From contig NC_092676.1 of assembly GCF_964355755.1 (NCBI RefSeq), positions 5,185,888 through 5,249,887 on the forward strand: a stretch of DNA of 64,000 nucleotides. The letters run 5' to 3'. Position numbers and translations under genes: made by a program. Position 1 is the first letter of the stretch, and each line of letters starts with the position of its first letter. The stretch comes from Antedon mediterranea (Eukaryota > Animalia > Echinodermata). The notes below the pieces were generated by a model that saw only the letters and a program-made list of their open reading frames with translations, ran no database searches and was not told where the DNA came from. Positions 6,298 to 63,476 of this stretch are shown here, piece by piece.

Positions 6298-6837
6298 AAA
6301 TGCCTCTTTATTAAAAAAATTTGTGTACAAAAGAATTTAGAGATTTTACTGTGTAATTTGAACTATCCCCCACTGATAAGAAAGTGGTTATTTTCAACAA
6401 GCTTGTGTAACACAAAGAAAATCCCAAAAATTATGAAACATAGGGGAAACTATAGGTCGATGATTATTGGAATGTATGATCAATAGAAATTTCTTGCCCG
6501 CACCTGGCCTTTAAGTATACACAGTTTAAGTGTAGCATTGTGTAATTGTTATATTATTTGGCTTTAACTATGGTATGGTGTAGTTGAAATATAGCAACTA
6601 TAGCAGCTATAGCTGAGGTTTCAGGCAAGTGACCAATGTGTCACAGTAGGATAGTGATATAACAGCTATCCCAAGGCTATTTGCAGCCTGTTTTGTATAG
6701 ATGATGTGAAGCAATTGCAGAGGTATTTGTTTGCTGTTTATAATACCAAAGCTATCCCAAGGCTATTTTCAGCCTGGCTATATCAATTATAGCAACTGCA
6801 AGTTATTTCCATGTTATTTATGTTGTATAAAATACAG

Positions 6838-16711: not shown

Positions 16712-16857
16712 TCTAAAAAGTAAAATGAAAAATGTGAACTGATTATTATTAACTGAATTAGTCTATATTAGAATTCTGAGTATAAATATACATTTACGCT
16801 TTAATTATTGTCAGCGTGCGCAAGTAATTTGTATAAATAGGTTCAAGTTCAATATCA

Positions 16858-22637: not shown

Positions 22638-22851
22638 ACTCTATTACTCTGATCGTTGCCATATTGCCACGACGATCCGATGAAAAAGCTATTAGACTTA
22701 GATTATCTTTACAAAGATTGCCTTGTTGGAAAGCCTTGTACGTATCAGTGTGAAATCATGAATGATACCAACTCGCGCAAACAAAATTACGTTGCTCCAT
22801 AGTCCTTTCCTGAAAACACATTAATGTCAATCATGTCTCCTCCATAGGAGC

Positions 22852-29500: not shown

Positions 29501-30606
29501 TCTGGCTTAGTTATTTAGCCTGCTAAATTGGTTGCCTAGCCACCAAAGTAAGCGAGAATTGGCCCATGAAACCAACATTTCCGGGTACAATAACTAAGTC
29601 TGAACGGCCCCCACAATGGCCTTGAAAAGACCAGCACACAGTTCTTACCAATTCCTGCAAATATCGGCTGTGACGCAGAGTAGTAGCCAATCAAAACGGA
29701 GTTCCAGCAAAACGGTTTTGAAAGCACCTTCAAGTACACGACAGGCATGAAGTACATGACGGTAGTAAACACAAGAAAATGACAAAGAAACAGCAAAATA
29801 ATCTTAATTCGTCTCTGAGATTTGGTGGAAGTAAACAATATTCTTACAGAAGAAAAGAACTTGGTAAGACCAAAGCAAATAGATTGTTTTGTTGTGACCG
29901 TTTCTGGTATAATAAATATTATGTATGGAACAACTATCATAAAGAGGCCAGCTGCAAGACAATATGGCGGAATAAATCCTGTAGCATCGACCCAGTATCC
30001 GACCCCAACTTGTGCAAGGCCAGAGCCACACATTACTAACGTCTGTAGTATTATAAATTTCATAGTGCGTTGGCGCTTTTTGGCAGTGTCAGCCACAATG
30101 GCTAAAGACACGGAAAAGAACAACTGGTATCCACCAAAACAGTTCCAGACAAAGTTTCCGATCACCAGATATGTCAAAGGCAAGGACAAATATGCCACAG
30201 TTATAACAGTCAGACATTGGGAAATTATTCCAAAATTTGATATTAATAGAGGTATTTTCCGTCCGATGGTATCACTAATAGTGGCGAATATTGTTGTTGA
30301 AATTAGCATAGGGAACGCGCCACATGCTCCGTATGCTAGGCTCCATGCTGTAACCTCTTGTTGTACTTGGTCCTGTAGTGAACTATCATTGGCATCATCT
30401 GAATCGTTCAAACAATTCGATTTGCTTGTCTCCGATGTCAGGTTGTATTTCTGACGTACTCGATGGTTAACATACTGTATTGTGATAGGCGCAGTTAGCC
30501 CAACACCGATCATTACAAGAAGCATAGCTGGTTCGATAAAGACACGACGTGGTCGATTGGCACCAGGTCTTCTGACAATTGGCGGTTCTTTTTCTGTCGT
30601 ATCCAT
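26531..30606 (-). CDS. SLC46-family (PCFT-like) MFS transporter, paralogue B, ~486 aa; coding exons 30606-29649, 28862-28731, 28613-28530, 27340-27184, 26660-26531
   Basis: Family motifs VFIEP, QYV, SDTIGRK, IVADT, PFCW and LSKTVDDKEQG-TLFA. GT-AG junctions and an open joined frame (1461 nt). Acceptor ttcttgcag lies just upstream of the ATG. C-terminal YTRL. Confidence 0.9.
26989..27147. mobile_element. PIF/Harbinger-type MITE in intron 4 of paralogue B
   Basis: TIR AGCTTGGTTCCCA / TGGGAACCAAGCT, TSD TTA (26986-26988 and 27148-27150), internally palindromic. Confidence 0.85.
27833..28529. repeat. 30-bp minisatellite (~23 units) at the start of intron 3 of paralogue B
   Basis: Unit tatctatacaaacgttaaaatacaccaagtc(a/c/t). 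The array abuts the exon 3 donor. Confidence 0.95.
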
Positions 30607-30659
30607 AATTGAAATTCCTGCAAGAAACAAACTGACAATACTAATAGTGTTTTAGCGTA

Positions 30660-34800: not shown

Positions 34801-35690
34801 TCATCGAAAATAAATTTTGACAATTTTGAACATTTTAAGCGCGCGTACGCAAGCGTTATATGCGCTACGCACGTAATTGTATTGCCATATGATGAAATAT
34901 GACCTGAAATTTATGAGTACCAAATTTTGTTTAATTGTGATTCATGCTTGTGAAGATATGATTACAAACGTGATTTCGTAAAATCGCGCGTAGACCGCGT
35001 AATTTTTGATTACGCATCGTGAAAATATAACCACATCGATTCCTGGCCATAAGGAATATACTCTGAAAAATTGACTTAGATAGATGAAACTGATATCAAG
35101 ATAATTCACGGACAAAATAGTGCTAAGGAAAGAATAAATAAATAAATAAATAAATAAATAAAGATTTTGACAGAATCAAGAGGTTATATGCATATCATGC
35201 ATATAACCTAATAAAGATTTTGACAGAATCAAGAGGTTATATGCATGATAATGCATATAACCTAATTAAGTTTTTAATATTAGTTTAAGCTAGGCCATGT
35301 AACCTAGTCAGTATCAGTAGTCCAGACCCTAGCTAGGCTAGAGTAGTATAGCCGGCCGCCCGCGCCGCGCCCGCCTGGTGGAACACCACCGCTTCGTTTT
35401 CCTTCGTCGGTTCTTCGACGGTATGCTAACTTATAACAATATTTGCACTACTAAAATAAGGAAATGCGATATTTATCTTTAATTTTGAATCATTCTTAGA
35501 AATTACTATAAAAATATGGGTGTGCATGATTTCACAATCTGTCGAAAAACCTTGCGCAATTTGCAGATTACTTGCGCAATTTAATACGTTGCTTGCGCAA
35601 TTTGAAACACATGTTTCAATTCAAATTGCGCAAGGATTTTTTTTGCGCAATTTCAAATTGCGCAAATCGTTCAAATCGCGCATAACACTA
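31858..35690. mobile_element. TIR element with AATTGCGCAA subterminal repeats (hAT-like ends), interrupted
   Basis: TIR tgttatgcgcgatttgaacgatttgcg...aaattgcgcaaaaaaaatccttgcgcaatttgaa, with its reverse complement ending ...aaatcgcgcataacacta. TSD not clear. Confidence 0.7.
32309..35266 (-). mobile_element. Helentron-type non-autonomous element (HINE/DINE-1-like, ~1.47 kb) with a second copy (33726-35212) inserted into its own microsatellite
   Basis: On the minus strand: 5' subTIR plus palindrome (taggttatatgcat...atgcatataacct), (TTTA)n, body, then 3' subTIR plus stem-loop (ttcgtca-tag-tgacgaa) ending ctagtt. Two near-identical bodies and two stacked 5' ends are present. Confidence 0.8.
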
Positions 35691-41885: not shown

Positions 41886-42315
41886 ACTTTAAAAGGGTAT
41901 GGGGTGTACACGTTAAATTTTGTTTTTAAATTTAAAAAATTTCTTCTTTGGTTAATAATGAAATTAATTAGTATGATCTTAGTTTTTAGTAATAGCACAA
42001 ATCATGGATGGATTTGGTTGTATGTATCACATGACGTCATGACGTCGTCAGTTGAACTGTAAAGTTCAGTTTAGTATTCCCTTTCAACAATCCTAGTTGA
42101 TAGTCTATGTGTTTGATAAATCTTGTGCTTATTACATGAATATCAATTATATTAAGTATTCTTACGAAGAATTCTTAATTGTATTAATGCATCATCTAAA
42201 TATTTAATATCTAAAAGCAATATCTACAGGTAAATGAAGATAGTAACAAAGTATATTGTTCATATGCTGAGCGGACTCGCAGAAGTAAAGTTTACGAGTG
42301 AATTAAGAAGTTAAG

Positions 42316-43063
42316 ATGTTCATCTTAAGAGGAATCATACTACTGTTTTCTATTGCTGCTATATTGATTGCATTGTTATTTTCTCGCTGTTTTAGTATCA
42401 GCTTCACTGACGTTAATGTTACCGATCATGTCACCGATTCCGTTATCGATCCTGTTAGCTTTCCGGTTACTGATACCAGTCCTGCTATCGATCATGTTGC
42501 CTTTCCAGTTAACCAGACGAATCCTGTCAGCGATCATGTCACCGATACTGTAACCCATCCTGTCACCTTTCCGGTTGCCGAGACGAACCCAGTTGCTGAT
42601 CATGATGTTACCGATTCTGTTGATCGTGTTATCAATCCTGTTACCGATCATGATGTTACCGATTCTCTTGATCGTGTTACCAATCATGTTACCGATCATG
42701 ACGTTACCGATGCTGTTGATCGTATAATCAATCCTGTTACCGATTCTGTTGATCGTGTTACCGATCATGATGTTACCGATTCTGTTGATCGTGTTACCAA
42801 TCATGTTACCGATCATGATGTTACCGATGCTGTTGATCGTATTATCAATCCTGTTACCGATCATGATGTTACCGATTCTGTTGATCGTGTTACCGATCAT
42901 GATGTTACCGATTCTGTTGATCGTGTTACCAATCCTGTCACCGATCATGATGTTACTGATTCTGTTGACCGTGTTACCAATCCTGTTACCGATCATGATG
43001 TTACCGATTCTGTTGATCGTGTTACCAATCCGGTTACCAAGACCAATCCTGTCACCCTTCCCG
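42316..43063 (+). CDS. LRR gene exon 1: signal peptide or signal anchor plus VTDHDVTDSVDRVTNP-type repeats
   Basis: MFILRGIILLFSIAAILIALLF followed by ~220 aa of T/D/V/P-rich repeats. Donor CCCG|gtatga. Confidence 0.78.
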
Positions 43064-46000
43064 GTATGATTTCTTTACCTAATTTGTTAGCCGATTAATT
43101 TTAATTGTTATAAATTGGGCTGGCACACAACTAGATATATTTATTTTACTTGGACTGTCACAGCTAAGTAGACACGTCTGACTAGAGGTACATATTGCAA
43201 TAGGCCTGTGTCACAACCAAAGATTGAATAGCGCTATAGTATCTTGGTCACAGAGGTAGTCTGAACTGACACGTCTAACTAGATTGCAATTGGGCTGTCA
43301 CAGTTTAGATAGACATGTCTGAGTGTAGATTGCATTTATTAGTGCTGTCACAGCTAGGTAGACGTGTCTGACTGTAGATTGCATTTATTAGTGCTGTCAC
43401 ATCTAGGTAGACATGTCTGACTGTAGATTGCTTTTATTAGTGCTGTCACAGCTAGGTAGACATATCTGACTGTAGATTGCATTTATTAGTGCTGTAAAAG
43501 CTAGGTAGACATGTCTGACTGTAGATTGCATTTATTATAGCTAGGTAGGGTCTACTTGGGCTGTCACTGACATGTCTGACTAGATATTGAATCATTTGTA
43601 GTTTGAAAACAAAGGTTTCCCCTCTGTCCCCGTTTTGCACAATGTCAGCCCTATGTGATTATTCTTTACAAGAGATATATATATTATATATGGTGATTAT
43701 ATCTCTGTCTTTACAGCTGAAGCAGAATGTCCAACCGGCTGCAAATGTGTTGCGCCTAGGTGGTCTACTGACGGTCACAGAGTGCGATGTCGTCCTCCAT
43801 GGAGTATTAATAACATCTCAACTATCAACGAGTATAATGATCATGTTCCAATAACAGAATTGTAAGTATGGGTTATTGTGAGGCGAACATTCATTGTTGT
43901 AGGGCTAAGTCTATTTATAAATTTTAAAACTATATTTAAAAATATATAAAAGATTATAAATATATAATTAGTGGCACCGATTAATAAAAATATCAAAAAT
44001 AATTTCATTTCCTGGTTTCTATACCCCAACACCAATCACTACATCACTGTACCTATAAGCGTAGAACATAACGAAATAAGTACATTGCCAACCCATGTGT
44101 TTGATAGTTTGACAGCACTGACAAAACTGTAGGCCTAAATATTAATTTCAATGTTTAACTTTCTTCTAAATAAATAATAAATTATTCATTCTTTAAGGAT
44201 TTTTAGGATGAATCGGTTAAAGATATTAATAGTTGAATTGGTCATTTAAGAGCCTTTAAAATTACTATATCATCATAAACATTAAGATGTTAGGGAATAT
44301 TCAGCATTCTCACATAAAAATTATTCAAAATGTATAGGCAAAAAAAAATAAAAATATAGAAATATTTTAAAATTTGCTATAGAAAATGTTTTCATGAACA
44401 ATAATAGTTTATTTTACTGTAGTCTAATTAAAGTATACTCATCAGCATTTACATATCAAACATCTTGAATATTGTAATTACACTGTACATTGTTTTTACT
44501 TTGAAGGGATTTGTACGGAAACCAAATAAGTACATTGCCAGCCAATGTATTTGATAGATTGACAGTATTGACATGGCTGTAAGTATTTTGCTAATAATAC
44601 TTTTTTAAATTTTTTTAAACAAGAAATAGTACATTAATTTATAATAATGTATGATATGCATTTAATCATCTCTTAATGAATAATAATATAATTCATAACA
44701 ATGAATATTATGCATTGTATCATTTTGTAATGTGATCAATACATACAGTATTAATATTAAAACGACTTAGTGTTAATATTTAATTTAAATATTATCAATT
44801 CATTTTTTTAAAAGATTTTACATCTCATGGTATTTATTTTTTTTGTTTAAAGATGTATTGTCCCTTGAAACACAAAAAAATGAATGAAAAAAAAATATTT
44901 TAAATTTAAATTGGCCATATCAAAGTAATATTAAAGTTATTCACTTTAAGTCGAAAATTCCAGCCAAAAACAACAATTTTACGTAATTAACAGGTAAATT
45001 AATTAGATTACATTTCATCTGGGAAATCGTCGCAAGCGAAAGTAAACAAAGATTTCAAACCATGAGTATGCATTATGCATGATGCTAATTAGGATTGTTT
45101 ACAACTTGTCACGGTTGAGAAGGTGTTTTCACACAGATCGCGAGGAAGTTTTATGATTATGCATACAGAGTAGCCAAATAAGTGCGTTGCATTATGAGAT
45201 ATGTTTTGATTGAAAACTTTGACTGGAAGTCAAAGTTATTTTTTGAACAAAAAAACATCTGTATTTCGGTTAAATTCTTTTTTTTTTTCGACTAATTTTT
45301 GGTGAAAGTTAATAACTATTATGATATTTCCAAATGACCAACTTTTTTTCAAAATGAAAAAAAAAATTTTTTTGGAATTAGTCAAAGGGACAATACATCT
45401 TTAATTTGTTTTAACAATAAATAATGAATATTTAAATGCATTGTATCATTTCATAATATAATCAATATATAACAGTATGTATTTCAAAAACCACTTTTAA
45501 AAAGCTTAAAATTAATTTAAAAAGAAAAACAATATTAATAGGAACAATATGTATGTTAATAATTAAATGTGTAAAGAGAGAAAGAGAGTACAAAATAACA
45601 ATGTGAAGAGAAATGTATGGAAATAAAAGTGGGACAAAACTTAGGTAAAAGACACAAAAAAAACACTTAGCATTAGTGAAATACTTAACCATACTCAATC
45701 AATTATTTGTTTAAAATTTTAAAATATTATTAATTGTTAATTGGTCATTAAATAAAGAGATTTATTGTTATTATTATGTTATTAAATGCATTAAGATGAT
45801 AAATAATAATTAGAAATCAATCCTCATTTAAAAAAAAAAATAATGAAATGAAATTCATAACAATGAATATTATGCATTGTAATCAATACATTCAGTTTTT
45901 TCAATCATTTAAAAGACATTCATTGTAATATTGTTTTTATTTAAAGAGATTAATTATCATATTACTAAAACATTTAGGAAAGGAAATTTACATGAAAGTA

Positions 46001-49000
46001 TTAGTATTATGCTATTATCACTTGATAGTGTGATACTATAACATACACACTGTATGATATGCACTAGAGAAAACAAATATTGCTTTAGAGTAATAATAAA
46101 ATAAATATTGGTTATCTTATAACAGGGATTTACAGAAAATGTTTATGTTTGCCTAAATAAAGTATACTCATCAGCATTTACTATGTAGATAATGTCCCTA
46201 TCATTGACTGAAAGACTATATATTTCAAAATGTATTGAAAAATTAAAAGTCTAGATATCAAACAGCTTGTAATTGTTACTGTACATTGTTTTTACTTTAA
46301 AGGAGTTTGAGCGGAAACCAAATAAGTACATTGCCAGCCAATGTATTTGATAAATTGACAGCATTGACATACCTGTAAGTATTTTGCTAATGATACTTTC
46401 TTCTTTTAATTTGTTTTAAAAAGAAATAATACATTAATTTATAATAATGTATGATATGCATTTAATCATCTCTTAATTAATAATAATATAATTCATAACA
46501 ATGAATATTATGCATTGTATCATTTTGTAATGTGATCAATACATACAGTATAGATTTATAACCACTTAGTGTTAATATTTAATTTAAATATTATCAATTC
46601 ATTTTTTTTTAAAGATATTAACAACTCATGGTATATTACATTTTGTTTGTTTATTTTGTTTTAACAATAAATAATGAATATTTAAATGCATTGCATCACT
46701 TCATAATATAATCAATATATACAGTATGTATTTAAAAAAACACTTAAAGCTTAAAATGAATTGAAAAAGAAAAACAATATTAATAAGAACAATATGTATG
46801 TTAATAATTAAATGTGTAAAGAGAGAAAGAGAGTACAAAATAACAATGTGAAGAGAAAAGTATATGGAAAAAAAAGTGGGACAAAACCCAGGTAAGACAA
46901 AAAAAAAACACTTAGCATAGTGAAATATTTAACCATACTCAAAACATTATTTGTTTTTAATTTTAAAATATTATTAATTGTTAATTGGTCATTAAATAAA
47001 GAGATTTAATCATTATGTTATTAAATGCATTAAGATGATAAATAATAATTAGAAATCAATAATACCTGTAAGTATTTTCCTCATTTCTAAAAGAAATAAT
47101 GAAATGAAATTCATAACAATGAATATTATGCATTGTAATCAATACATTCAGTTTTTTTAATCATTTAAAAGACATTCATTGTAATATTGTTTTTATTTAA
47201 AGAGATTAATTATCATATTACTAAAACATTTAGGAAAGGAAATTGACATGAAAGTATTAGTATTATGCTATTATCACTTGATAGTGTGATACTATAACAT
47301 ACACACTGTATGATATGCACTAGAGAAAACAAATATTGCTTTAGTAATAATAAAATAAATATTGGTTATCTTATAATAGGGATTTACAGAAAATGTTTAT
47401 GTTTGCCTAATTAAAGAATACTCATCAGCATTTACTATGTAGATAATGTCCCTATCATGGACTGAAAGACTATAACAAATAATTCAAAATGTATAAGAAA
47501 AATAAAAATTGAAATACCAAACAGCTTGAATATTGTAATTGTTACTGTACATTGTTTTTACTTTGAAGGGGTTTGAGCGGTAACCAAATAAGTACATTGC
47601 CAGCCAATGTATTTGATAGATTGACAGCATTGACACACCTGTAAGTATTTTGACTCATATTAATTCCTTCGTTTAATTTGTTTTTAAATAAATAATAAAA
47701 TAATTTATAATACTAAATATTATGCAGTAACATTATTTAACCATTATTAATAAATTATTCATTTTTTAAAGATTATCAATAATTGTTCATTGATCATTTT
47801 TTAAAGAGATTTAATTAAATACATAAAAATGGGAAATACATAAAGATGATAATAAATATTTAGAATTTACTATAGAATTTGTGATAATAAATAACACATT
47901 ATTATTTTAACAGTTACTTTTTGCCTAATTAAAGAATACTCATCAGCATTTAGTATGTAGATAATGTCCCTATCATGGACTGAAAGACTATACAAAATAA
48001 TTCAAAATGTATAAGAAAAATAAAAGTTGACACATCAAACAGCTTGAATATTGTAATTGTTACTGTACATTGTTTTTACTTTGAAGGGATTTGGGCTGGA
48101 ACAAAATAAGAACATTGCCAGCCAATCTATTTGATAGATTGACAGCATTGACAACACTGTAAGTATTTTGCTAATGATACTTTCTTTGTTTAATTTGATT
48201 TAAAAAGAAATAATACATTAATTTATAATAATGTATGATATGTATTTAATCATCTCTTAATTAATAATAATATAATTCATAACAATGAATATTATGCATT
48301 GTATCATTTTGTAATGTTGATCAATACATACAGTATATATTTATAACCACTTAGTGTTAATATTTAATTTAAATATTATCAATAAATTTTTTTTAAGATA
48401 TTACATCTCATGGTATTTAATTGTTTTGTTTAATTTGCTGTAACAATAAATAATGAATATTTAAATGCATTGCATCACTTCATAATATAATCAATATATA
48501 CAGTATGTATTTAAAAAAACACTTAAAGCTTAAAATTAATTTAAAAAGAAAAACAATATTAATAAGAACAATATGTATGTTAATAATTAAATGTGTAAAG
48601 AGAGAAAGAGAGTACAAAATAACAATGTGAAGAGAAAAGTATATGAAAATAAAAGTGGGACAAAACTCAAGACAAAAAAACACTTAGCATAGTGAAATAT
48701 TTACCAATCTCAATAAATTATTTGTTTTAAATTTTAAAATATTATTAATTAGTCATTAAATAAAGAGATTTAATCATTATGTTATTAAATGCATTAAGAT
48801 GATAAATAATAATTAGTAATCAATAATACCTGTAAGTATTTTCCTCATTTCTAAAAGAAATTAAATGAAATGAAATTCATAACAATGATAATTATGCATT
48901 GTAATCAATACATTCAGTTTTTTCAATCATTTAAAAGACATTCATTGTAATATTGTTTTTATTTAAAGAGATTAATTATCATATTACTAAAACATTTAGG

Positions 49001-52000
49001 AAAGGAAATTGACATGAAAGTATTAGTATTATGCTATTATCACTTGATAGTGTGATACTATAACATACACACTGTATGATATGCACTAGAGAAAATAAAT
49101 ATTGCTTTAGTAATAATAAAATAAATATTGGTTATCTTATAACAGGGATTTACAGAAAATGTTTATGTTTGCCTAATTAAAGAATACTCATCAGCATTTA
49201 CTATGTAGATAATGTTCCTATCATTGACTGAAAGACTATAACAAATAATTAAAAATGTATATGAAAAATAAAAGTTGACATATCAAACACTTTGAATATT
49301 GTAATTGTTACTGTACATTGTTTTCACTTTTAAGGTATTTGAGCTGGAACCAAATAAGTACATTGCCAGCCAATGTATTTGATAAATTGACAGCATTGAC
49401 ACACCTGTAAGTATTTTGCTAATAATACTTTCTTTGTTTAATTTGATTTAAAAAGAAATAATACATTAATTTATAATAATGTATGATATGTATTTAATCA
49501 TCTCTTAATTAATAATAATATAATTCATAACAATGAATATTATGCATTGTATCATTGTGTAATGTGATCAATACATACAGTACATATTTATAACCACTTA
49601 GTGTCAATATTTAATTTAAATATTATCAATTCAATTTTTTTAAGATATTACATTTTATGGTATTTAATTTTTTTTTAAATTTGCTTTAACAATAAATAAT
49701 GAATATTTAAATGCATTGTATCACTTCATAATATAATCAATATATACAGTATGTATTTATAAAAACACTTAAAACTTAAATTAATTTAAAAAGAAAAACA
49801 ATATTAATAAGAACAATATGTATTTTAACAATTAAATGTGTAAAGAGAGAAAGAGAGTACAAAATAACAATGTGAAGAGAAAAGTATATGGCAACAAAAG
49901 TGGGACAAAACCCAGGTAAGACAAAAAATAAACACTTAGCATTAGTGAAATATTTAACCACACTCAATAAATTATTTGTTTTAAATTTTAACATTTTATT
50001 AATTGTTAATTGGTCATTAAATAAAGAGATTTAATCATTATGTTATAAAATGCATTAAGATGATAAATAATAATTAGATATCAATAATACCTGTAAGTAT
50101 TTTCCTCATTTCTAAAAGAAATAATGAAATGAAAATCATAACAATGAATATTATGCATTGTAATCAATACATTCAGTTTTTTAAACCATTTAAAAGACAT
50201 TCATTGTAATATTGTCTTTATTTAAGAGATTAATTATCATATTATTAAAAACATTTAGGAAAGGAAATTTACATGAAAGTATTAGTATTATGCTATTATC
50301 ACTAGATAGTGTGATACTATAACATACACACTGTATGATATGCACTAGAGAAACCAAATATTGCTTTATTAATAATAAAATAAATATTGGTTATCTTATA
50401 ACAGGGATTTACAGAAAATGTTTATGTTTGCCTAATTAAAGAATACTCATCAGCATTTACTATGTAGATAATGTTCCTATCATTGACTGAAAGACTATAA
50501 CAAATAATTAAAAATGTATAAGAAAAATAAAAGTTGACACATCAAACAGCTTGAATATTGTAATTGTTACTGTACATTGTTTTTACTTTGAAGGGATTTG
50601 CAAATTAACCAAATAAGTACATTGCCAGCCAATGTATTTGATAAATTGACAGCATTGACAAAACTGTAAGTATTTTGCTAATAATACTTTCTTTGTTTAA
50701 TTTGATTTAAAAAGAAATAATACATAATGTATGATATGTATTTAATCATCTCTTAATTAATAATAATATAATTTATAACAATGAATATTATGCATTGTAT
50801 CATTTTGTAATGTGATCAATACATACAGTATATATTTATAACCACTTACTGTTAATATTTAATTTAAATATTATCAATTCATTTTTTTTAAAGATATTAC
50901 AACTCATGGTATTTATTTTTTTTGTTTAATTTGTTTCAACAATAAATAATACTTAAATGCATTATATCACTTCATAATATAATCAATATAGGCATATACA
51001 GTATGTATTTATAAAACCACTTAAAACTTAAAATTCATTCAAAAAGAAAAACAATATTAATAGGAACAATATGTATGTTAATAATTAAATGTGTAAAGAG
51101 AGAAAGAGAGTACAAAATAACAATGTGAAGAGAAAAGTATATGGCAATAAAAGTGGGACAAAACCCAGGTAAGACAAAAAATAAACACTTAGCATTAGTG
51201 AAATATTTAACCATACTCAAAACATTATTTGTTTTAAATTTTAAAATATTATTAATTGTTAATTGGTCATTAAATAAAGAGATTTAATCATTATGTTATT
51301 AAATGCATTAAGATGATAAATAATAATTAGTAATCAATAATACCTGTAAGTATTTTCCTCATTTCTAAAAGAAATTAAATGAAATGAAATTCATAACAAT
51401 GAATATTATGCATTGTAATCAATACATTCAGTTTTTTTACTCATTTAAAAGACATTCATTGTAATATTGTTTTTATTTAAAGAGATTAATTATCATATTA
51501 CTAAAACATTTAGGAAAGGAAATTGACATGAAAGTATTAGTATTATGCTATTATCACTTGATAGTGTGATACTATAACATACACACTGTATGATATGCAC
51601 TAGAGAAAACAAATATTGCTTTAGTAATAATAAAATAAATATTGGTTATCTTATAATAGGGATTTACAGAAAATGTTTATGTTTGCCTAATTAAAGAATA
51701 CTCATCAGCATTTACTATGTAGATAATGTCCCTATCATTGACTGAAAGACTATAACAAATAATTCAAAATGTATATGAAAAATAAAAGTTGACATATCAA
51801 ACACTTTGAATATTGTAATTGTTACTGTACATTGTCTTCACTTTTAAGGTATTTGTACAGGAACCAAATAAGTACATTGCCAGCCAATGTATTTGATAAA
51901 TTGACAGCATTGACATACCTGTAAGTATTTTGCTAATGATACTTTCTTTGTTTAATTTGATTTAAAAAGAAATAATACATTAATTTATAATAATGTATGA

Positions 52001-55000
52001 TATGTATTTAATCATCTCTTAATGAATAATAATATAATTCATAACAATGAATATTATGCATTGTATCATTTTGTAATGTGATCAATACATACAGTACATA
52101 TTTATAACCACTTAGTGTCAATATTTAATTTAAATATTATCAATTCAATTTTTTAAAGATATTACATTTCATGGTATTTATTTGTTTTTTTAATTTCCTT
52201 TAAAAATAAATAATGAATATTTAAATGCATTGCATCACTTCATAATATAATCAATATATACAGTATGTATTTAAAAAAACACTTAAAGCTTAACATTTAA
52301 AAAGAAAAACAATATTAATAAGAACAATATGTATGTTAACAATTAAATATGTAAAGAGAGAAAGAGAGTACAAAATAACAATGTGAAGAGAAATGTATAT
52401 GGAAATAAAAGTGGGACAAAACTTGGGTGAGACAAAAAAAAACACTTAGCATAGTGAAATATTTAACCATACTCAAAACATTATTTGCTTTAAATTTTAA
52501 AATATTATTAATTGTTAATTGGTCATTAAATAAAGAGATTTAATCATTATGTTATTAAATGCATTAAGATGATAAATAATAATTAGAAATCAATAATACC
52601 TGTAAGTATTTTCCTCATTTCTAAAAGAAATTAAATGAAATGAAATTCATAACAATGAATATTATGCATTGTAATCAATACATTCAGTTTTTTCAATCAT
52701 TTAAAAGACATTCATTGTAATATTGTTTTTATTTAAAGAGATTAATTATCATATTACTAAAACATTTAGGAAAGAAAATTTACATGAAAGTATTAGTATT
52801 ATGCTATTATCAGTTGATAGTGTGATACTATAACATACACACTGTATGATATGCACTAGAGAAAACAAATATTGCTTTAGTAATAATAAAATAAATATTG
52901 GTTATCTTATAACAGGGATTTACAGAAAATGTTTATTTTTGCCTAATTAAAGAATACTCATCAGCATTTACTATGTAGATAATGTCCCTATCATTGACTG
53001 AAAGACTATACAAAATAATTCAAAATGTATAAGAAAAATAAAAATTGAAATACCAAACAGCTTGAATATTGTAATTGTTACTGTACATTGTTTTTACTTT
53101 GAAGGGATTTCAGCTGGAACCAAATAAGTACATTGCCAGCCAATGTATTTGATAGATTGACAGCATTGACAAAACTGTAAGTATTTTGCTAATGATACTT
53201 TCTTTGTTTAATTTGTTTTAAAAAGAAATAATTCATTAATTTATAATAATGTATGATATGCATTTAATCATCTCTTAATGAATAATAATATAATTCATAA
53301 CAATGAATATTATGCATTGTATCATTTTGTAATGTGATCAATAAATACAGTATTAATATTAAAACCACTTAGTGTTAATATTTAATTTAAATATTATCAA
53401 TAAAATTTTTTAAAGATTTTACATCTCATGGTATTTAATTGTTTTGTTTAATTTGTTTTAACAATAAATAATGATAATTTAAATGAATTGTACCACTTCA
53501 TAATTATTCAATATAAACAGTATGTATTTAAAAAACCACTTAAAGCTTCAAAATAATTTAAAAAGAAAAACAATATTAATAGGAACAATATGTATGTTAA
53601 CAATTAAATGTGTAAAGAGAGAAAGAGAGTACAAAATAACAATGTGAAGAAAAATGTATATGAAAATAAAAGTGAGACAAAACTCAAGACAAAAAAACAC
53701 TTAGCATAGTGAAATAATTAACCATACTCAATAAATTATTTGTTTTAAATTTTAAAATATTATTAATTGGTCATTAAATAAAGAGATTCAATCATTATGT
53801 TTTTAAATGCATTAAGATGATAAATAATAATTAGAAATTGTTAATACCTGTAAGTATTTTCCTCATTTCTAAAAAGAAATAATGAAATGAAATTCATAAC
53901 AATGAATATTATGCATTGTAATCAATACATTCAGTTTTTTAAACCATTTAAAAGACATTCATTGTAATATTGTTTTTATTTAAGAGATTAATTATCTTAT
54001 TATTAAAAACATTTAGGAAAGGAAATTTACATGAAAGTATTAGTATTATACGGAAGCCCGTTCGGGCCACAAGATAACTATATTTAAAAAGCTGTTATCT
54101 GGCGGCCGCCACTTAATTATCTGGCAGCCGCCACTTAATTATCTGGCGGCCGCCACTTAATTATCTGGCGGCCGCCACTTAATTATCTGGCGGCCGCCAC
54201 TTAATAATTAGTACATGTCCCGTCACGTGACATGTACGTGCATTGGATCAGAGGCGATGTTGCATATGGAACGCCATCGCTGCCTCCGGCAGCAAACTTT
54301 AATTCTATTCGGCTCTTTTACAACCATTACGTTCGGCTCTTTTAGCATTCGGCGCATTTCTATTCGGCCCATTTACCATATTTACGATTAAAGATGTGTT
54401 GAATACCCTAAATTAATTCATCTTTTTCCAAATTTTGAGAGAGAAAGGGTAAATTATTATTGCTAAAAGTTAGGCTGACACTAGACTAGGTCTAGCTAGC
54501 CTAGGCCATAAATCAAACCTTTTCTCTTTCAAAATAGTCAATAAGGTGGGACAAGTTCTCTATAACACATTAATCATGTCAATAAAATGATTAGTCATAT
54601 TGAAATAGCCTTCAAATTTATTTAATTCAACCAACCAAACACTCTACATGCTGCATCTATATGTTTTGTAAACTTTTCATAGACTTATTTCCAGCCGTTA
54701 ATTTTCTTCCATTTGACCCCATGTTAAAGGTTAGAATTTAATTGCGCCGTATAAAAAAATCAAAGAGAGCCGAACGTAATGGTAAATGGGCCGAATAGAA
54801 ATGCGCCGAATGGTAAAAGAGCCGAATAGAATTAAAGTTTGCTGCCGGAAGCAGCGATGGCGTTCCATATGCAACATCGCCTCTGATCCAATGCACGTAC
54901 ATGTCACGTGACGGGATATGTACTAATTATTAAGTGGCGGCCGCCAGATAATTAAGTGGCGGCCGCCAGATAATTAAGTGGCGGCCGCCAGATAATTAAG

Positions 55001-58000
55001 TGGCGGCCGCCAGATAATTAAGTGGCGGCCGCCAGATAATTAAGTGGCGGCCGCCAGATAATTAGGTGGCGGCCGCCAGATAATTAGGTGGCGGCCGCCA
55101 GATAATTAGGTGGCGGCCGCCAGATAATTAAGTGGCGGCCGCCAGATAATTAAGTGGCGGCCGCCAGATAACAGCTTTTAAAATATAGTTATCTTGTGGC
55201 CCGAACGGGCTTCCGTAGTATTATGCTATTATCACTTGATAGTGTGATACTATAACATACACACTGTATGATATGCACTAGAGAAAACAAATATTGCTTT
55301 AGTAATAATAAAATAAATATTGGTTATCTTATAACAGGGATTTACAGAAAATGTTTATGTTTGCCTAATTAAAGAATACTCATCAGCATTTACTATGTAG
55401 ATAATGTCCCTATCATTGAGTGAAAGACTATAACAAATAATTAAAAATGTATAAGAAAAATAAAAGTTGACATATCAAACAGCTTGAATATTGTAATTGT
55501 TACTGTACATTATTTTTACTTTGAAGGAGTTTGAGCAGAAACCAAATAAGTACATTGCCAGCCAATGTATTTGATAGATTGACAGCATTGACACACCTGT
55601 AAGTATTTTGCTAATGATACTTTCTTTGTTTAATTTGTTTTAAAAAGAAATAATACATTATTTTTATAATAATGTATGATATGCATTTAATCATCTCTTA
55701 ATGAATAATAATATAATTCATAACAATGAATATTATACATTGTATCATTTTGTAATGTGATCAATACATACAGTATAGATTTATAACCACTTAGTGTTAA
55801 TATTTAATTTAAATATTATCAATAAATTTTTTTCAAGATATTAACTACTCGTGGTATTTCATTTTTTTGTTTATTTTGTTTTAACAATAAATAATGATAA
55901 TTTAAATGCATTGTATCACTTCATAATATAATTAATATATAAAGTATGTATTTAAAAAACCACTTAAAGCTTAAAATGAATTTAAAAAGAACAAAAAATA
56001 TTAATAGGAACAATATGTATGTTAACAATTAAATGTGTAAAGAGATAAAGAGAGTACAAAATAACAATGTGAAGAGAAATTGTATATGGAAATAAAGTGA
56101 AATATTTAATTCAACCTACTGAATAAATTTTTTTTTTTTAATTTAAACATATTATTTATTGTTAATTGGTCATTAAATAAAGAGATTTAATCATGATGTT
56201 ATTAAATGCATTAAGATGATAAATACTAATTAGAAATCAATAATACCTGTAAGTATTTTCCTCATTTTTAAAAAGAAATAATAAAATTAAATTCATAACA
56301 ATGAATATTATGCATTGTAATCAATACATTCAGTTTTTTTAAACCATTTAAAAGACATTCATTATTAAATTGTCTTTATTTAAGAGATTACTTATCATAT
56401 TATTAAAAACATTTAGGTAAGGAAATTTACATGAAAGTATTAGTATTATGCTATTATCACTTGATAGTGTGATACTATAACATACACACTGTATGATATG
56501 CACTAGAGAAAACAAATATTGCTTTAGTAATAATAAAATAAATATTGGTTATCTTATAACAGGGATTTACAGAAAATGTTTATGTTTGCCTAATTAAAGA
56601 ATACTCATCAGCATTTACTATGTAGATAATGTCCCTATCATTGACTGAAAGACTATACAAAATAATTCAAAATGTATAAGAAAAATAAAAATTGAAATAC
56701 CAAACAGCTTGAATATTGTAATTGTTACTGTACATTGTTTTTACTTTGAAGGAGTTTGAGCATTAACCCAATAAGTACATTGCCAGCCAATGTATTTGAT
56801 AGATTGACAGCACTGACAGACCTGTAAGTATTTTGCTAATGATACTTTCTTTGTTTAATTTGTTTTAAAAAGAAACAATACATTAATTTATAATAATGTA
56901 TGATATGCATTTAATCATCTCTTAATGAATAATAATATAATTCATAACAATGAATATTATGCATTGTATCATTTTGTAATGTGATCAATACATACAGTAT
57001 AGATTTATAACCACTTAGTGTTAATATTTAATTTAAATATTATCAATTCATTTTTTTAAAGATATTAACAACTCATGGTATATTAAATTTTTTTTGTTTA
57101 ATTTGTTTTACCAATAAATAATGAATATTTAAATGCATTGCATCGCTTCATAATATAATCAATATATACAGTATGTATTTAAAAAAACACTTAAAGCTTA
57201 AAATGAATTGGCTACTTAATTTTTTAAAAGATAGAGAACAGCGTGTTAAGCTTAATCACACGTTGTCCTCGTTGTTGAAAGTTAACACGGGTGTTCCACA
57301 AGGTTGTGTGTTATCACCTTTATTGTATACAATATACACAAATGATTGTAAGTCAAATAATACAAAAACTGAGATTATTAAATATGCAGACGACACTGCT
57401 CTGATTGGTTATCTGGATTCAAAAGATGATTCAATGACAGGCTTCTTAGACAGTATTAATATTTTTCACAAATGGTGTAAAGATAATTTTTTAGATCTAA
57501 ATATAAATAAAACTAAAGAGATGGTTTTTGATTTTCGGAAGAAGATAAACTACCTTCCCAAGATCAAAATCAATGGTGAGACCATTCTGGAAGTTAAAAC
57601 TTACAAATATTTAGGGGTTGAAATTGATAATAAACTTAAATTTGATGCAAATAGTAGGTGCATATACAATAAATTACAAAAACGTCTCTTCTTTCTACGC
57701 AAATTAAACTCTTTTAAGATTGACCGTACTATTTTACAACTTTTTTATACTTCTATCTTAAACAGTGTACTTAGTTTTTGCCTAATATGTTATTATGGTA
57801 ATTCACGTTTTAAAGATAGACTTTTACTTAATAAAATAGTTAAACAAGGCAGTAGAATAGTAGGCTCTGAACAAATTCCCCCTGAATATTTACATTTTTT
57901 TTTATTAGTTCTATGTGTAAATATGTTAACTGCACACTACAAAGTTGTGGATGACAGTGTGGTGTAATGGTTATGTATCCAGCCTCTCACAGTTGAGATC

Positions 58001-61000
58001 GCTGGTTCAAGTCCCACTGAGGATTTTTTTTTTTTTATTATTATTATTATTTTTTTTTTTGTGGACCTTGATCTTTGACCCTGACCCTTCAAAATTTAAC
58101 CACAATTATATGATGTGTCATTGATCATTGTGGCTAAGTTTGGTGAGAATCGGATCAAAACTGTGGTCTCTAGGCAGTAAAATAGTTTTTTGTTAGTTGT
58201 GACCTTGACCTATGACCTTTCCCCCTCAAATTTGAACTCGTCCGAGCTTTTTGGGCATAGATCATTGTGTCAAAATTTGGTTAGAATCGGATAAAAACTG
58301 TGGCCTCCAGGCTGTTCACAGACACACACACAAACACACACACATACACACACAAACACACAAACATACAGGGGTGAAAACATAACCTCCTTGGCGGAGG
58401 TAATAAGAACAATATGTATGTTAATAATTAAATGTGTAAAGAGAGAAAGAGAGTACAAAATAACAATGTGAAGAGAAAAGTATATGGAAATAAAAGTGGG
58501 ACAAAACCCAGGTAAGACAAAAAAAACCCACTTAGCATAGTGAAATATTTAACCATACTCAAAACATTATTTGTTTTAAATTTTAAAATATTATTAATTG
58601 TTAATTGGTCATTAAATAAAGAGATTTAATCATTATGTTATGTTATTAAATGCATTAAGATGATAAATAATAATTAGTAATCAATAATACCTGTAAGTAT
58701 TTTCCTCATTTCTAAAAGAAATTAAATGAAATGAAATTCAAAACAATGAATATTATGCATTGTAATCAATACATTCAGTTTTTTAAACCATTTAAAAGAC
58801 ATTCATTATTAAATTGTCTTTATTTAAGAGATTAATTATCATATTATTAAAAACATTTAGGTAAGGAAATTGACATGAAAGTATTAGTATTATGCTATTA
58901 TCACTTGATAGTGTGATACTATAACATACAGACTGTATGATATGCACTAGAGAAAACAAATATTGCTTTTAGTAATAATAAAATAAATATTGGTTATCTT
59001 ATAACAGGGATTTACAGAAAATGTTTATGTTTGCCTAATTAAAGAATACTCATCAGCATTTACTATGTAGATAATGTCCCTATCATTGACTGAAAGACTA
59101 TACAAAATAATTAAAAATGTATAAGAAAAATAAAAGTTGACATATCAAACGGCTTGAATATTGTAATTGTTACTGTACATTGTTTTTACTTTGAAGGATT
59201 TTGGGCTATAACCAAATAAGTACATTGCCAGCCAATGTATTTGATAGATTGACAGCACTGAGAGAACTGTAAGTATTTTGCTAATAATACTTTCTTTGTT
59301 TAATTTGTTTTAAAAAGAAATAATACATTAATTTCTAATTATGTATGATATGCATTTAAGAGCCATTGTCTGTAAAAATCAAAGATTTGGTGGCAGATGT
59401 AAAAAATGGATTTCTCTAACATTTTTACCATGAATAGACATTTCAATAAAAAGCATATCTACAACATTCATTTTAATTTTTAGCCTCTGTTGCCATGACA
59501 ACGGTCAATTATCCAAATGTTGATGTTTTTGCCATTTTTCACAGATTTTCTAGGCCTATAGTGAAAAAGTACAAACTTGTATAGGCCTACTTATTTTAAC
59601 CAAAAATACTTACAGTATACAGTTTTTGTTTATAGCAGTGTAAACAACATGTATTGAGTTCCATTTAATGTAGAAAAAAAAATAAAAAAATGGAGTTTGG
59701 TTGATACCATTATTTTAAAAAGGGGTGTTTTTAAAAAATATTTTTTTTATAAAAGTATACCTCATAAACGTACCTATAACTTCCAAAGTGGTGTTTTTAT
59801 ATCAATGAGGTTTTTTAATTTGATAGTCAATAGGTTTGTCAACAATAATCACGAAAAAAACACTGGGGTAAATTTTGTACATAGGTTTTGTGTTGCCAGG
59901 AAAATACGAAAAATACAAAAAAATACAAACAAAATATCAACAAACAAAACACATGAAACACAATTTAAATATGGCTAATCCAATAATAAAATGTATATGT
60001 GGCTTGTCATAATGCTACTAGAGTCATAGTTTAGATAAAATAGGAGAATGTGTTGCCAGGTTTATTTAAATTAATTGCCTGAAAAACAGTATTTTGCATT
60101 GAAATATTTAGTTGATGGAAAATAATGTTAAACTTTGAAATAATTGCGTGAATGGTTTTTATAAATTTTTAAATCTATTTTGTGTAAAGAGATACAGAAA
60201 GACCTCCCAAAAAATCTGACCTTGTAAATAGGTCATTTGAGGTCAAAAGGGGTCAGAATGCAAAACAGGACAGGTCCCCACTTTACTAAAACTATTAATG
60301 TTTGATCAAAATTTACAAGATAGTTAAAAAAATTCTCAACAATTTTCATTTTTTACCTATAGTGTTACCTTAGCAACCATTTATATATGTGTATATTGCA
60401 TTTATAATTTTTCTCAATTTGACTTCTACTGCATTTTATTAATCTTAAAGTGATGACAAACTTGACCTTGTAAATTCATTCATTTTGAGGTCAACATTTT
60501 ACCATAGTAACTGTTTTTATGCGAAAATATTTAAAAAATAAGGGGTTTTTCATAAATACAAAACATTTTTTCTACATAGTTTTACATTTCTACTTTTTGC
60601 CAAATTTACTTTAAATACTGAATCCTAATAATCTCAGAAAGAAAGTCTTGACAAATCTTAATAAAGGTAACAAATTGACCTTTAGTGTTATCTTAAACCT
60701 GTTTACGTAACTAAGGATATTTAAATAAAATTTGGAGTTTTCATGAAAAAAAAAATTTACATATTAAGGTCAAATGACATCAACATTTTACCTATAGTGT
60801 ATTGTAGCAACTGTTTCTATACGTAACTAAGTACAATATTTTTAATATGGGGTTTCATGAATACAAACAATTGATTACATAGCTTTACTATTTTTTTCCC
60901 AAATTTACTTATCTACTGAATCCCAGAAAATGTCTGACCTTGTGAAAGGGTCATTTGTTGGGTCAAGTTATGTCAAAATGTATTATTTATGTTATCTTAG

Positions 61001-63113
61001 AACCGGTTTCTATGCGTAACTAAGGATAATTGTTTTTTTATATACAGTTGAACCTCCCGTAAGTGGCCACCCTCGGGACCTGGAAAAGTGGCCGCTTACG
61101 GGCGGTGACCCCTTACCGGATAATTATTATCAGATAATTATTAATTAATAATTAATACTGAATCCAACCATCACAGTAAAAAAAAATATAGAATTTAAAA
61201 CCAATATTTAAAAATAAAGTGTGATATTTACATGCTGACCTTAAATGAAATGAAATTTCACATCAGGGCTTCAATATTTGTTGTGTAGCATTAACATACC
61301 TGAGTATATCATTGACTTTTGATTGGTTCTATTTTGGGGAGGGGAAAGTGGTGGATCCAGGAGGCGAGGGTCTAAAAACTTTATGTCCTATCTTTTGCAT
61401 TGCAATGTTTAACTTGGGGTGGGTGGGGGCTTGGAGAAAGGGGGAGGGGGTGGGATGGAGGAGTTTGAATCCGTCTATTTGTTGGGGCGATGGTAGCGGC
61501 AGTGTGGGTGGTGCTTGAATGCATGCATTTGACACTCTATAGTGGATGATCGACCAAAGTGTTACAGTTTATCTTTTTGTGATTATAGTCGGGGTAGGGT
61601 GGGGTGGGGGGGGGGGGGGTGGTAGTCGAAAGTGGTGGTGGATGGGCATGTGGGATCTGCTTAGGTTAGCAAATAAAAGAAGTAAACAAATGAAAGAGGA
61701 GCTTCAAAATAAGAGAGGAGTAATCTGTTGCAGAGATTAAAATTCACAACGATCTGATAATTTATTCAAATTTCCAGAAGATATAACTTATAAAATGACA
61801 TTAAAACCGGGAATTACAGAATCTATAATTAAAAACATTTTTTTTTTTTCTCACAACACAACTAGAACTATAAAACATTCAGAATTTTTCTGACCAATGA
61901 GTTTCAAATCAAAAAATCAAAGAAAATAAAATGTTTTTACTAATATACCATGTGTTTTTTTTTTATAAAAATGCCTATGTTTCTCGCAACACTGCTTGTA
62001 GATTTTTAAATTACCCCAGTATTTTATTTTAGAAATCAATTATTAAACATTAGAACTACCTATTTGTAATAAATCAGCTAAAAAAATACACCACTTTGGG
62101 CGTTATGGTGAGTTAAAGTTTAGTTGCATTGAACAATTTAAAAAAAGTGAAAAACACCCCCTTTTTAAATAAATGGTATCTCCCTAAGTATGAAATAAAA
62201 AAAAATAAAAAAATATGGAACAGGTACACAATGCATTGTTATTATGCATACACTAATTATTTTTTATAATTAAATGAACAAAACAAAAATATCGTTCATG
62301 AAAGTAGTACCAATATCCATTTTAAAAAACCTTAAAAAAGGACAAAATTTGTCAAAAACACAAATTTGGTCGTTGCCATGGAAGTATAGGTGTGAAATAA
62401 AAAATACTTCATATTTGATTTCTCTCAACACATATATAGACATGTGCAAAATTTGAAATTATTTGTTTTTAAATTTTAAAATATTATTAATTGGTCATTA
62501 TTAATCAATTTGTTATTAAATGCAATCAATAATACTTGTAAGTATTTTCCTCATTTCTAAAAAGAAATAATGAAATGAAATTCATAACAATGAATATTAT
62601 GCATTGTAATCAATACATTCAGTTTTTTCAATCATTTAAAAGACATTCATTGTAATATTGTTTTTATTTAAAGAGATTAATTATCATATTACTAAAACAT
62701 TTAGGAAAGGAAATTGACATGAAAGTATTAGTATTATGCTATTATCACGTGATAGTGTGATACTATAACATACACACTGTATGATATGCACTAGAGAAAA
62801 CAAATATTGCTTTAGAGTAATAATAAAATAAATATTGGTTATCTTATAACAGGGATTTACAGAAAATGTTTATGTTTGCCTAATTAAAGAATACTCATCA
62901 GCATTTACTATGTAGATAATGTTCCTATCATTGACTGAAAGACTATAACAAATAATTAAAAATGTATAAGAAAAATAAAAGTTGACACATCAAACAGCTT
63001 GAATATTGTAATTGTTACTGTACATTGTTTTTACTTTGAAGGGATTTGCAAATTAACCAAATAAGTACATTGCCAGCCAATGTATTTGATAAATTGACAG
63101 CATTGACAAAACT
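42316..63113 (+). CDS. Multi-exon extracellular leucine-rich-repeat protein (hydrophobic N-terminus + T/D/V-rich stalk + LRRNT + at least 12-13 single-exon VLR-like LRRs); 3' end outside window
   Basis: Exon 42316-43063 (phase 1) joins in frame to 43717-43861 (phase 1-2), then to a series of 72-bp phase 2-2 exons with ttttacttt(g/t)aag acceptors and gtaagt donors. No stops in any exon. Confidence 0.88.
43160..43585. repeat. 49-bp intronic minisatellite
   Basis: gctgtcacagctaggtagacatgtctgactgtagattgcatttattagt at 43344, 43393 and 43442, with degenerate flanking copies. Confidence 0.88.
43717..43861 (+). CDS. LRR gene exon 2: LRRNT cap
   Basis: ctttacag|...|gtaagt. Translates AEAECPTGCKCVAPRWSTDGHRVRCRPPWSINNISTINEYNDHVPITEL (CPxxCxC...VxC pattern). 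Confidence 0.88.
44057..44128 (+). CDS. Divergent first LRR exon (SVEHNEISTLPTHVFDSLTALTKL) with an atypical acceptor
   Basis: Homologous to the downstream exons. Donor gtaggc. The expected acceptor reads ctAT, but an in-frame AAG acceptor 3 nt downstream would give a 69-bp exon (44060-44128). Confidence 0.55.
44507..44578 (+). CDS. LRR cassette exon 1: DLYGNQISTLPANVFDRLTVLTWL
   Basis: 72 bp, ag|...|gtaagt, phase 2-2. Confidence 0.9.
44851..45400. mobile_element. TTAA-targeting MITE with AG-initiated TIRs (Kolobok-type)
   Basis: TIR AGATGTATTGTCCC / GGGACAATACATCT with TTAA on both sides. The empty site ttttgtttaatttg is visible in sister repeat units. Confidence 0.85.
46303..46374 (+). 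CDS. LRR cassette exon 2: SLSGNQISTLPANVFDKLTALTYL
   Basis: 72 bp, ag|...|gtaagt, phase 2-2. Confidence 0.9.
47569..47640 (+). CDS. LRR cassette exon 3: GLSGNQISTLPANVFDRLTALTHL
   Basis: 72 bp, ag|...|gtaagt, phase 2-2. Confidence 0.9.
48087..48158 (+). CDS. LRR cassette exon 4: DLGWNKIRTLPANLFDRLTALTTL
   Basis: 72 bp, ag|...|gtaagt, phase 2-2. Confidence 0.9.
49335..49406 (+). CDS. LRR cassette exon 5: YLSWNQISTLPANVFDKLTALTHL
   Basis: 72 bp, ag|...|gtaagt, phase 2-2. Confidence 0.9.
50594..50665 (+). CDS. LRR cassette exon 6: DLQINQISTLPANVFDKLTALTKL
   Basis: 72 bp, ag|...|gtaagt, phase 2-2. Confidence 0.9.
51849..51920 (+). CDS. LRR cassette exon 7: YLYRNQISTLPANVFDKLTALTYL
   Basis: 72 bp, ag|...|gtaagt, phase 2-2. 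Confidence 0.9.
53105..53176 (+). CDS. LRR cassette exon 8: DFSWNQISTLPANVFDRLTALTKL
   Basis: 72 bp, ag|...|gtaagt, phase 2-2. Confidence 0.9.
54049..55217. mobile_element. Foldback element with TACGG...CCGTA ends and 6-bp TSD (IS3EU-type, non-autonomous)
   Basis: TIR begins TACGGAAGCCCGTTCGGGCCACAAGATAACTAT and extends over 300 bp. TSD GTATTA (54043-54048 and 55218-55223) is confirmed by empty sites in sister units. 22-bp subterminal repeat atctggcggccgccacttaatt, 5 copies left and ~11 right. Confidence 0.9.
55527..55598 (+). CDS. LRR cassette exon 9: SLSRNQISTLPANVFDRLTALTHL
   Basis: 72 bp, ag|...|gtaagt, phase 2-2. Confidence 0.9.
56752..56823 (+). CDS. LRR cassette exon 10: SLSINPISTLPANVFDRLTALTDL
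   Basis: 72 bp, ag|...|gtaagt, phase 2-2. Confidence 0.9.
57209..57885 (+). mobile_element. Truncated non-LTR retrotransposon reverse transcriptase fragment (Rex1/Babar-like, CR1 group)
   Basis: Motifs GVPQGCVLSPLLY, KYADDT, WCKDNFLDLNINKTKEMVFDFRK, YKYLGV and RLFFLRKL. The first ~12 codons of the listed ORF are host intron repeat. Confidence 0.9.
57890..58403 (-). mobile_element. Helentron-type non-autonomous element fragment with a tRNA-like Pol III segment
   Basis: Minus-strand 5' end ATTACCTCCGCCAAGGAGGTTATGTTTT followed by (GT)n, with tgaccttga repeats. tRNA-like segment on + at ~57953-58030 (TGGTGTAATGG ... GGTTCAAGTC ... T-run). Confidence 0.72.
59197..59268 (+). CDS. LRR cassette exon 11: ILGYNQISTLPANVFDRLTALREL
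   Basis: 72 bp, ag|...|gtaagt, phase 2-2. Confidence 0.9.
59360..62455. mobile_element. ~3.1-kb intronic DNA-transposon insertion (TTAA-anchored, imperfect long inverted repeats, right end deleted) with a nested Tc1/pogo-like end at ~61043
   Basis: Host repeat breaks at gcatTTAA|gagcc. Inverted pairs include gataccattattttaaaaaggggtgttttt / aaaaacacccctttttaaataaatggtatc and gttgccatgacaacg / cgttgccatggaag. TA-CAGTTGAACCTC plus a hairpin at ~61041-61115. Confidence 0.6.
63042..63113 (+). CDS. LRR cassette exon 12: DLQINQISTLPANVFDKLTALTKL (identical to exon 6)
   Basis: 72 bp, ag|...|gtaagt, phase 2-2. Confidence 0.9.
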
Positions 63114-63476
63114 GTAAGTATTTTGCTAATAATACTTTCTTTGTTTAATTTGATTTAAAAAGAAATAATACATAATGTATGATATGTATTTAATCATCTC
63201 TTAATTAATAATAATATAATTTATAACAATGAATATTATGCATTGTATCATTTTGTAATGTGATCAATACATACAGTATACATTTTAAACCACTTAGTGT
63301 TAATATTTAATTTAAATATTATCAATTCATTTTTTTAAAGATATTACATCTCATGGTATTTAATTTTTTTGTTTAATTTGTTTTAACAATAACTAATGAA
63401 TATTTAAATGAATTGTATGAATTCATAATATAATCAATATATACAGTATGTATTTATAAAACCACCTAAAGCTTAA

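Follow-up and report, generated by a model that had tools for sequence, protein, structure and literature searches.

The variable lymphocyte receptors (VLRs) of agnathans are built from a 24-residue leucine-rich repeat (LRR) module, XLXXLXXLXLXXNXLXXLPXXXFX (PMC13428168, PMC7768089, PMC4731796). They bind with the concave face of the LRR domain, repebody binding being likewise on the concave LRRV face (PMC7485979), and their diversity comes from conversion-like exchange among cassettes, the germline gene being incomplete and assembled somatically by cytidine deaminases (PMC13428168, PMC7768089). Brown-algal ROCO and LRR-only genes have one LRR per 72-bp phase-2 exon, show intra- and intergenic recombination and splice variants, and have a proposed immune role (PMC3341825, PMC11378527). 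Group III LRR genes of Tetrahymena consist of tandem exon+intron units that are recognisable in the DNA, have phase-2 introns, undergo ectopic recombination or conversion and carry identical exons at separate places (PMC6564038). A stretch of 64,000 nucleotides from the feather star Antedon mediterranea (NC_092676.1, positions 5,185,888 to 5,249,887; the whole of it is called the window) holds the 5' part of an LRR gene whose array of one-repeat exons extends to the window end, and this gene is an animal version of the known exon-shuffling design. It is probably a crinoid LRR receptor gene of immune-recognition type, whose one-exon cassettes exchange DNA through the germline and whose four codons predicted to face the ligand are kept diverse by selection.

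A preliminary description of the window had listed twelve LRR exons of 72 bp, phase 2-2, stop-free and with intact splice sites, and a direct check finds all twelve at those places (Table 1), each with the form AG/G...CT/GTAAGT and open in the phase-2 frame. When the two strands of the entire window are searched for an AG, 72 nt and a GT enclosing an open LRR motif, the same twelve exons are the only ones to come up, with none on the minus strand. The exons encode xLxxN(Q)ISTLPANVFD(R/K)LTALTx and the junction codon is Leu in all of them; 11 of the 12 are distinct in sequence, while the donor positions +1 to +12 are identical in 12/12. Coding exon 1, the LRRNT-like exon and the twelve LRR exons have matching phases and join into a model of 585 residues with no stop, and the 14 coding exons contain neither stops nor frameshifts, which bears out the in-frame exon with hydrophobic N-terminus and stalk that had been claimed upstream of the repeats.

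The best 19-residue hydropathy of exon 1 is 2.75, at residues 3-21, and it is followed by a V/D/T-rich stalk of ~220 residues; the hydrophobic stretch could be a cleaved signal peptide or a type II anchor, and in the latter case the LRR domain would be held off the membrane. The stalk (42417-43060) is made of 12/48/117/132-bp internal repeats; contig coverage is poor there, so its length may vary between alleles. The LRRNT label of the next exon, which is in frame, rests on a CxxxCxC...C motif; the exon matches no Pfam family, and its sole PDB match, to a VLR LRRNT, is weak (E=1.1). The hydrophobic N-terminus and the Cys cap suggest that the LRR region is extracellular, and the protein is predicted to be secreted or membrane-anchored. 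The exon count holds for the twelve full copies and had overlooked a 13th, 69-bp copy, which lies in frame and is also covered by a contig from another DNA sample; it would be a degenerate or optional first repeat, and its inclusion would keep the frame.

Divergence among units was measured in the nine full-length ones, three short or cut units being left out. The mean p-distance of the introns is 5.0% (range 2.9-6.9%) and reaches 6.3% with all 12 units. The exon framework (60 nt) diverges by 3.3%, against 53.9% at the 12 nt of four codons, which are x3, x5, x7 and x8 of LxxLxLxxN. In the standard LRR register these positions sit on the concave strand, and the same columns vary among VLR-type repeats aligned from PDB; the concave-face assignment rests on this register and on these alignments. 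Because the four codons were chosen after inspection, a neutral simulation at the intron rate took the best four of 23 codons in each of 2000 runs, giving a mean of 0.13 and a maximum of 0.21, against 0.54 observed. When the structure alone sets the choice of six concave positions, variable bases number 14 of 18 there and 6 of 54 elsewhere (Fisher p=2.6e-7), and the proportions of nonsynonymous (pN) and synonymous (pS) differences are 0.43 and 0.19 there and 0.030 and 0.026 in the framework. The 23 distinct hypervariable codons include no stop, which is not significant (~0.33 by chance, hand calculation). The intron splits the concave strand, so that x3 closes one exon and x5, x7 and x8 open the next, and the 7 x 11 variants in the window give 77 possible strand types, of which 11 occur in genomic order. 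With the strand divided in this way, every crossover, every deletion and every skip would make a new binding strand and not merely a new order.

The units carry signs of exchange with each other, as the preliminary description had proposed for crossover or conversion between homologous introns. LRR exons 6 and 12, which are 12.4 kb apart, share an identical tract of 463 bp, and the next longest tract has 87 bp. Across 57 informative sites of the nine units, four-gamete incompatible pairs rise from 21% at less than 10 bp to 54% at more than 100 bp, and in the exon taken with its acceptor the figure is 45 of 91 informative pairs, counts that recurrent mutation in A/T tracts inflates; some of the within-exon incompatibilities are surely due to recurrent change. 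Incompatibility between adjacent sites is 0.34, against 0.52 in permutations (p=0.0014), and reassortment is thereby supported. Trees of the intron halves are near star-like: only one of their 12 inner branches has good support, and no order of duplication can be read from them. The units are likely recombinant mosaics, with DNA exchanged between homologous units, and exchange of the conversion type seems to matter no less than expansion.

Splicing was followed through joints in contigs placed on a single exon, in a comparison of sequencing run X5 with three DNA-like runs. X5 has two exon-to-exon joints of 72-nt period, one going back 72 and the other going back 34 with 38 letters between, the second of which belongs to a related subfamily. 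The first is a 97-nt contig that has one difference over 57 nt from LRR exon 6 and then continues directly into another exon. Several loose ends of this run read by eye as exon-to-exon junctions, one of them into a different LRR type. Joints of this period are found in 0/3 DNA-like runs; AG acceptors and GT donors are among the loose ends listed for these. With the open joined frame, the X5 joints agree with the earlier claim of a spliced gene, extended here to a family: on the evidence of one study, transcription of the LRR gene family and splicing in the predicted way are very probable. An X5 loose-end consensus (6 contigs, agreement 0.63) considered as an LRRNT-to-LRR junction was dropped, because an LRR exon end fits equally by eye.

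The DNA-like runs place 121, 172 and 142 contigs on one 171-bp stretch and show all three alternative bases at five hypervariable positions; in one of them a single 99-nt contig has a depth of 558, while contigs that look single-copy in the same run have 43-58, although summed run depths are not copy numbers and give a hint only. Related exons also occur in other intron contexts in the runs, and these data point to a multi-locus gene family. Within 42231-44400, introns that seem to be unique show fixed differences between runs X1-X3 and the window, of whose words these runs contain only 25-37%; they seem to come from another individual or a close relative, which would also have exon 1, the LRRNT-like exon and the 69-bp copy.

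The same family could make its repertoire within the individual, through regulated Dscam-like exon skipping or through somatic crossover or conversion in coelomocytes. All exons being phase 2-2, skipping would be frame-neutral, and with identical donors any in-order subset stays in frame (4095 from 12 exons); the homologous introns provide templates, the codon-scale incompatibilities (the 45 of 91 pairs given above) fit short-tract exchange, and brown-algal LRR exons (PMC11378527) and crab VLR2 (PMC10045472), the latter with ten splice isoforms, are alternatively spliced. However, for the best X5 joint one possible reading is the gene's own exon 6-exon 7 junction with one difference, other pairings being equally good, and the uniformly strong splice sites suit constitutive inclusion. 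A 2024 paper notes that for the algal genes somatic rearrangement is so far unreported (PMC11378527), and according to a 2026 review the diversity of echinoderms is encoded in the germline (PMC13428168). A repertoire made within the individual is unlikely. Its fullest form is a feather-star VLR analogue, a family of extracellular LRR receptors that draws on a large genome-wide pool of one-repeat cassettes; with the binding strand split by the intron, skipping or somatic crossover between homologous introns would supply every animal or immune cell with new surfaces for binding. This form is similarly doubtful; if true, a basal echinoderm would have a receptor repertoire that is combinatorial and possibly anticipatory.

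The unit size of ~1.25 kb given in the preliminary description applies to most of the array. Spacings of 1225-1266 bp occur in only 6 of the 11 intervals, and 3 further spacings become 1247-1256 bp after removal of one private insertion each, while one unit is a 518-bp deletion form and another retains only 747 bp of unit sequence. Private insertions are found in four units, one of them replacing part of its unit; all are intronic, and each is confined to one unit. The TTAA-flanked element has very high depth in all four runs examined.

Such features could belong to a copy that is inactive or in decay, in which an exon+intron unit was amplified into a macrosatellite and the variable codons come from active paralogues. 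Transposons have inserted four or five times, one unit is deleted, the 13th copy is degenerate and exon 10 has an N-P, and protein searches found no annotated protein with the LRRNT-like exon or the stalk. Against decay, the coding exons are free of stops and frameshifts, every insertion is intronic, the donors are identical in 12/12 while the intron interiors differ by 5%, and the X5 contig close to exon 6 is joined to another exon, so that a decaying copy is very unlikely. A plain satellite is rejected. False duplication of a shorter array during assembly would agree with the identity of exons 6 and 12 over 463 bp, and no listed read or contig spans the array, but 11 of 12 exons are distinct, the units are 3-7% apart with private insertions and many exon variants appear in independent runs, for which this explanation is rejected as hardly credible.

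Each full unit has a second perfect donor-like site with an AG 15 nt upstream (47053-47067, and in seven more units at 48817, 50078, 51331, 52587, 53835, 56234 and 58678). The 15-mer in between would hold an in-frame stop. The site is probably the remnant of an exon lost from a shorter ancestral unit and possibly a poison micro-exon.

With one LRR per equal-length phase-2 exon in 12/12 cases and repeat units that show signs of recombination, the cassette design reported earlier is confirmed. Its novelty is narrower than had been thought: near-identical exon+intron LRR units with shuffling are known in Tetrahymena and brown algae, while an echinoderm, extracellular case with VLR consensus was not found in print. 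Literature searches, part of them aimed at echinoderms or crinoids, gave no account of an array of this kind from any echinoderm, though supplements of crinoid genome papers or subscription journals could already list the family. Diversifying concave-face sites, a trait of exon-shuffled LRR arrays, are present in the feather-star gene on the predicted face. Brown-algal LRR exons have four concave sites under positive selection with the same spacing as here (PMC11378527), which would correspond to x3/x5/x7/x8. The algal ROCO proteins have tandem ROC-COR domains behind the LRRs, whereas the animal gene has a hydrophobic N-terminus, a stalk and an LRRNT-like cap. The shuffled type I exon of the algae has another boundary, and type II (xLxxN...LxxL), which has the boundary seen here, is described without shuffling; the algal genes also have inverted intronic exons, whereas the window has no intact inverted exon and one degenerate copy on the same strand. 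Tetrahymena group III genes differ in being from a ciliate and in having 90-bp exons, ~347-bp units and no VLR-type module in the accessible account (PMC6564038).

Zebrafish NLRs vary in LRR exon number, the LRRs themselves being not very variable (PMC4852459). The sea-urchin SpTransformer (Sp185/333) genes, an echinoderm immune family, owe their diversity to repeats, duplication and recombination, and differ from the feather-star gene in being non-LRR, two-exon genes with the mosaic within one exon (PMC13428168). The 72-bp size and phase 2 are shared with ordinary animal LRR genes such as the gonadotropin receptors (cited in PMC11378527). Unlike these, the feather-star gene has introns that are ~95% identical and binding codons that vary ten times faster than the introns. 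SLIT and LGR have 72-bp phase-2 LRR exons, and in ordinary genes the introns are old and divergent and the repeats fixed.

A profile of the 12 exons against PDB gives 46 matches, mostly VLRs and VLR-derived binders or designs, with SLITRK1 at E=7e-5; this ranking favours proteins with many similar repeats and shows likeness of the module, not descent. The exons follow the 24-residue VLR consensus, so the VLR-like module of the preliminary description is retained, whether it arose by retention or by convergence. In contrast to the agnathan genes, the feather-star exons are in-line and spliceosomal and form an open gene, and its stalk-like part precedes the LRRs, unlike that of VLRB. VLRB has a C-terminal stalk and a GPI anchor. 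Free cassettes were not found elsewhere in the window on either strand, and membership in the VLRs is rejected on this ground and on the open frame of the germline exons. Amphioxus Bf66946 (PMC4731796) and crab VLR2 (PMC10045472) are invertebrate extracellular LRRNT-LRR proteins with VLR-type repeats that bind bacteria, and the accessible accounts describe for them neither a near-identical exon+intron array nor hypervariability of concave codons within one gene.

The diversified surface could instead act in self/non-self or gamete recognition and not in microbial defence, since neither the hypervariable concave face nor the shuffling of repeats tells what the ligand is. In broadcast spawners, gamete proteins such as oyster bindin and abalone VERL are repeat-built and intron-recombining. 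A multi-copy family with several exon subtypes fits expansion of pattern recognition better than a single locus, and the bacterial binding of the amphioxus and crab proteins also speaks for defence, which leaves this role improbable as well.

In the favoured reading, a germline-diversified immune receptor, homologous introns and a near-invariant exon middle would let crossover or conversion alter the number and order of repeats with the frame intact. Unequal crossover would alter repeat number, conversion would homogenise introns and framework and spread new binding codons, and selection would favour new residues on the binding face. The ligand may be microbial or parasite-derived, and the immune role is proposed by analogy. 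The gene is real, and it is probably expressed and rapidly diversifying. The locus touches on two open questions, the diversification of recognition in invertebrate deuterostomes and the kind of germline gene that could come before a VLR-type system, and represents an animal that reaches a VLR-like module with hypervariable concave positions by another route, through spliceosomal exons in homologous units.

Several observations, besides the recurrent mutation mentioned above, weigh against this reading. At the four hypervariable codons pS is also high (0.34 on ~1.8 sites per pair), which suggests old codons kept or imported during homogenisation of the flanks, or targeted mutation; either could contribute without selection on this gene. 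Since each insertion is present in one unit only, whole-unit duplication has been slow relative to these insertions, and from the time of their arrival whole units cannot have turned over very rapidly. The RNA status of X5 is guessed, no run being recorded as RNA, and this run is from one study and from a second sample; it also covers intron edges, its joints may come from paralogues or another allele, and no exon-1-to-LRRNT joint is among the 15 of 55 joints listed. The C-terminus lies beyond the window, and protein searches found no annotated full-length protein for the gene.

The same searches gave no annotated model that includes the LRRNT-like exon or the stalk exon, so the family is perhaps under-annotated as satellite DNA. 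Eight matches to the former and one to the latter were dismissed as unrelated repeat proteins, and the LRR exon core has no match in the metagenome contigs searched.

Table 1. Features of the feather-star LRR gene, in window positions
Feature	Position	Strand	Remarks
Coding exon 1 (hydrophobic N-terminus + stalk)	42316..43063	+	748 nt; phase-1 donor
LRRNT-like exon, 4 Cys	43717..43861	+	145 nt; phase 1 in, phase 2 out
13th LRR copy, 69 bp, in frame	44060..44128	+	Shortened acceptor, GTAGGC donor (weakened splice sites)
Array of ~1.25-kb exon+intron units	44507..63476	+	Introns 2.9-6.9% divergent among 9 full-length units
LRR exon 1	44507..44578	+
Private insertion, terminal inverted repeats, TTAA-flanked	44851..45399	.	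High-copy non-autonomous DNA element
LRR exon 2	46303..46374	+
LRR exon 3	47569..47640	+	518-bp deleted unit next
LRR exon 4	48087..48158	+
LRR exon 5	49335..49406	+
LRR exon 6	50594..50665	+	Within 463-bp tract identical to that of exon 12
LRR exon 7	51849..51920	+
LRR exon 8	53105..53176	+
Private insertion, long inverted repeats	54050..55216	.	Non-autonomous DNA element; 22-bp GC-rich subterminal repeats, 8-bp target duplication
LRR exon 9	55527..55598	+
LRR exon 10	56752..56823	+	N-P in place of N-Q
Private insertion with fragment of reverse transcriptase of long interspersed nuclear element (LINE) type	57205..58400	+	RVT_1 E=4.7e-16
LRR exon 11	59197..59268	+
Private 3.1-kb insertion, replaces part of unit	59360..62457	.	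Unclassified
LRR exon 12	63042..63113	+	Gene runs past window or is interrupted

The rest of the window contains two convergent transporter genes of the major facilitator superfamily, SLC46/PCFT-like and with long first exons, at 22825-23868 (+) and 29536-30651 (-). The open reading frame (ORF) at 22825-23865 is 100% identical to an Antedon mediterranea protein over 96% of the query, and relatives from Anneissia reach 64%. An apparently single-exon ORF of the Sulfotransfer_5 family lies at 15860-16762 (-) and has no exact sequence match in the protein collection searched. A ~1.42-kb tandem duplication with 98% identity and no convincing ORF occupies 32297-35193, and minisatellites with periods of 76/152, 56, ~180 and 32 bp are found at 746-8078, 18584-20441 and 27830-28529.

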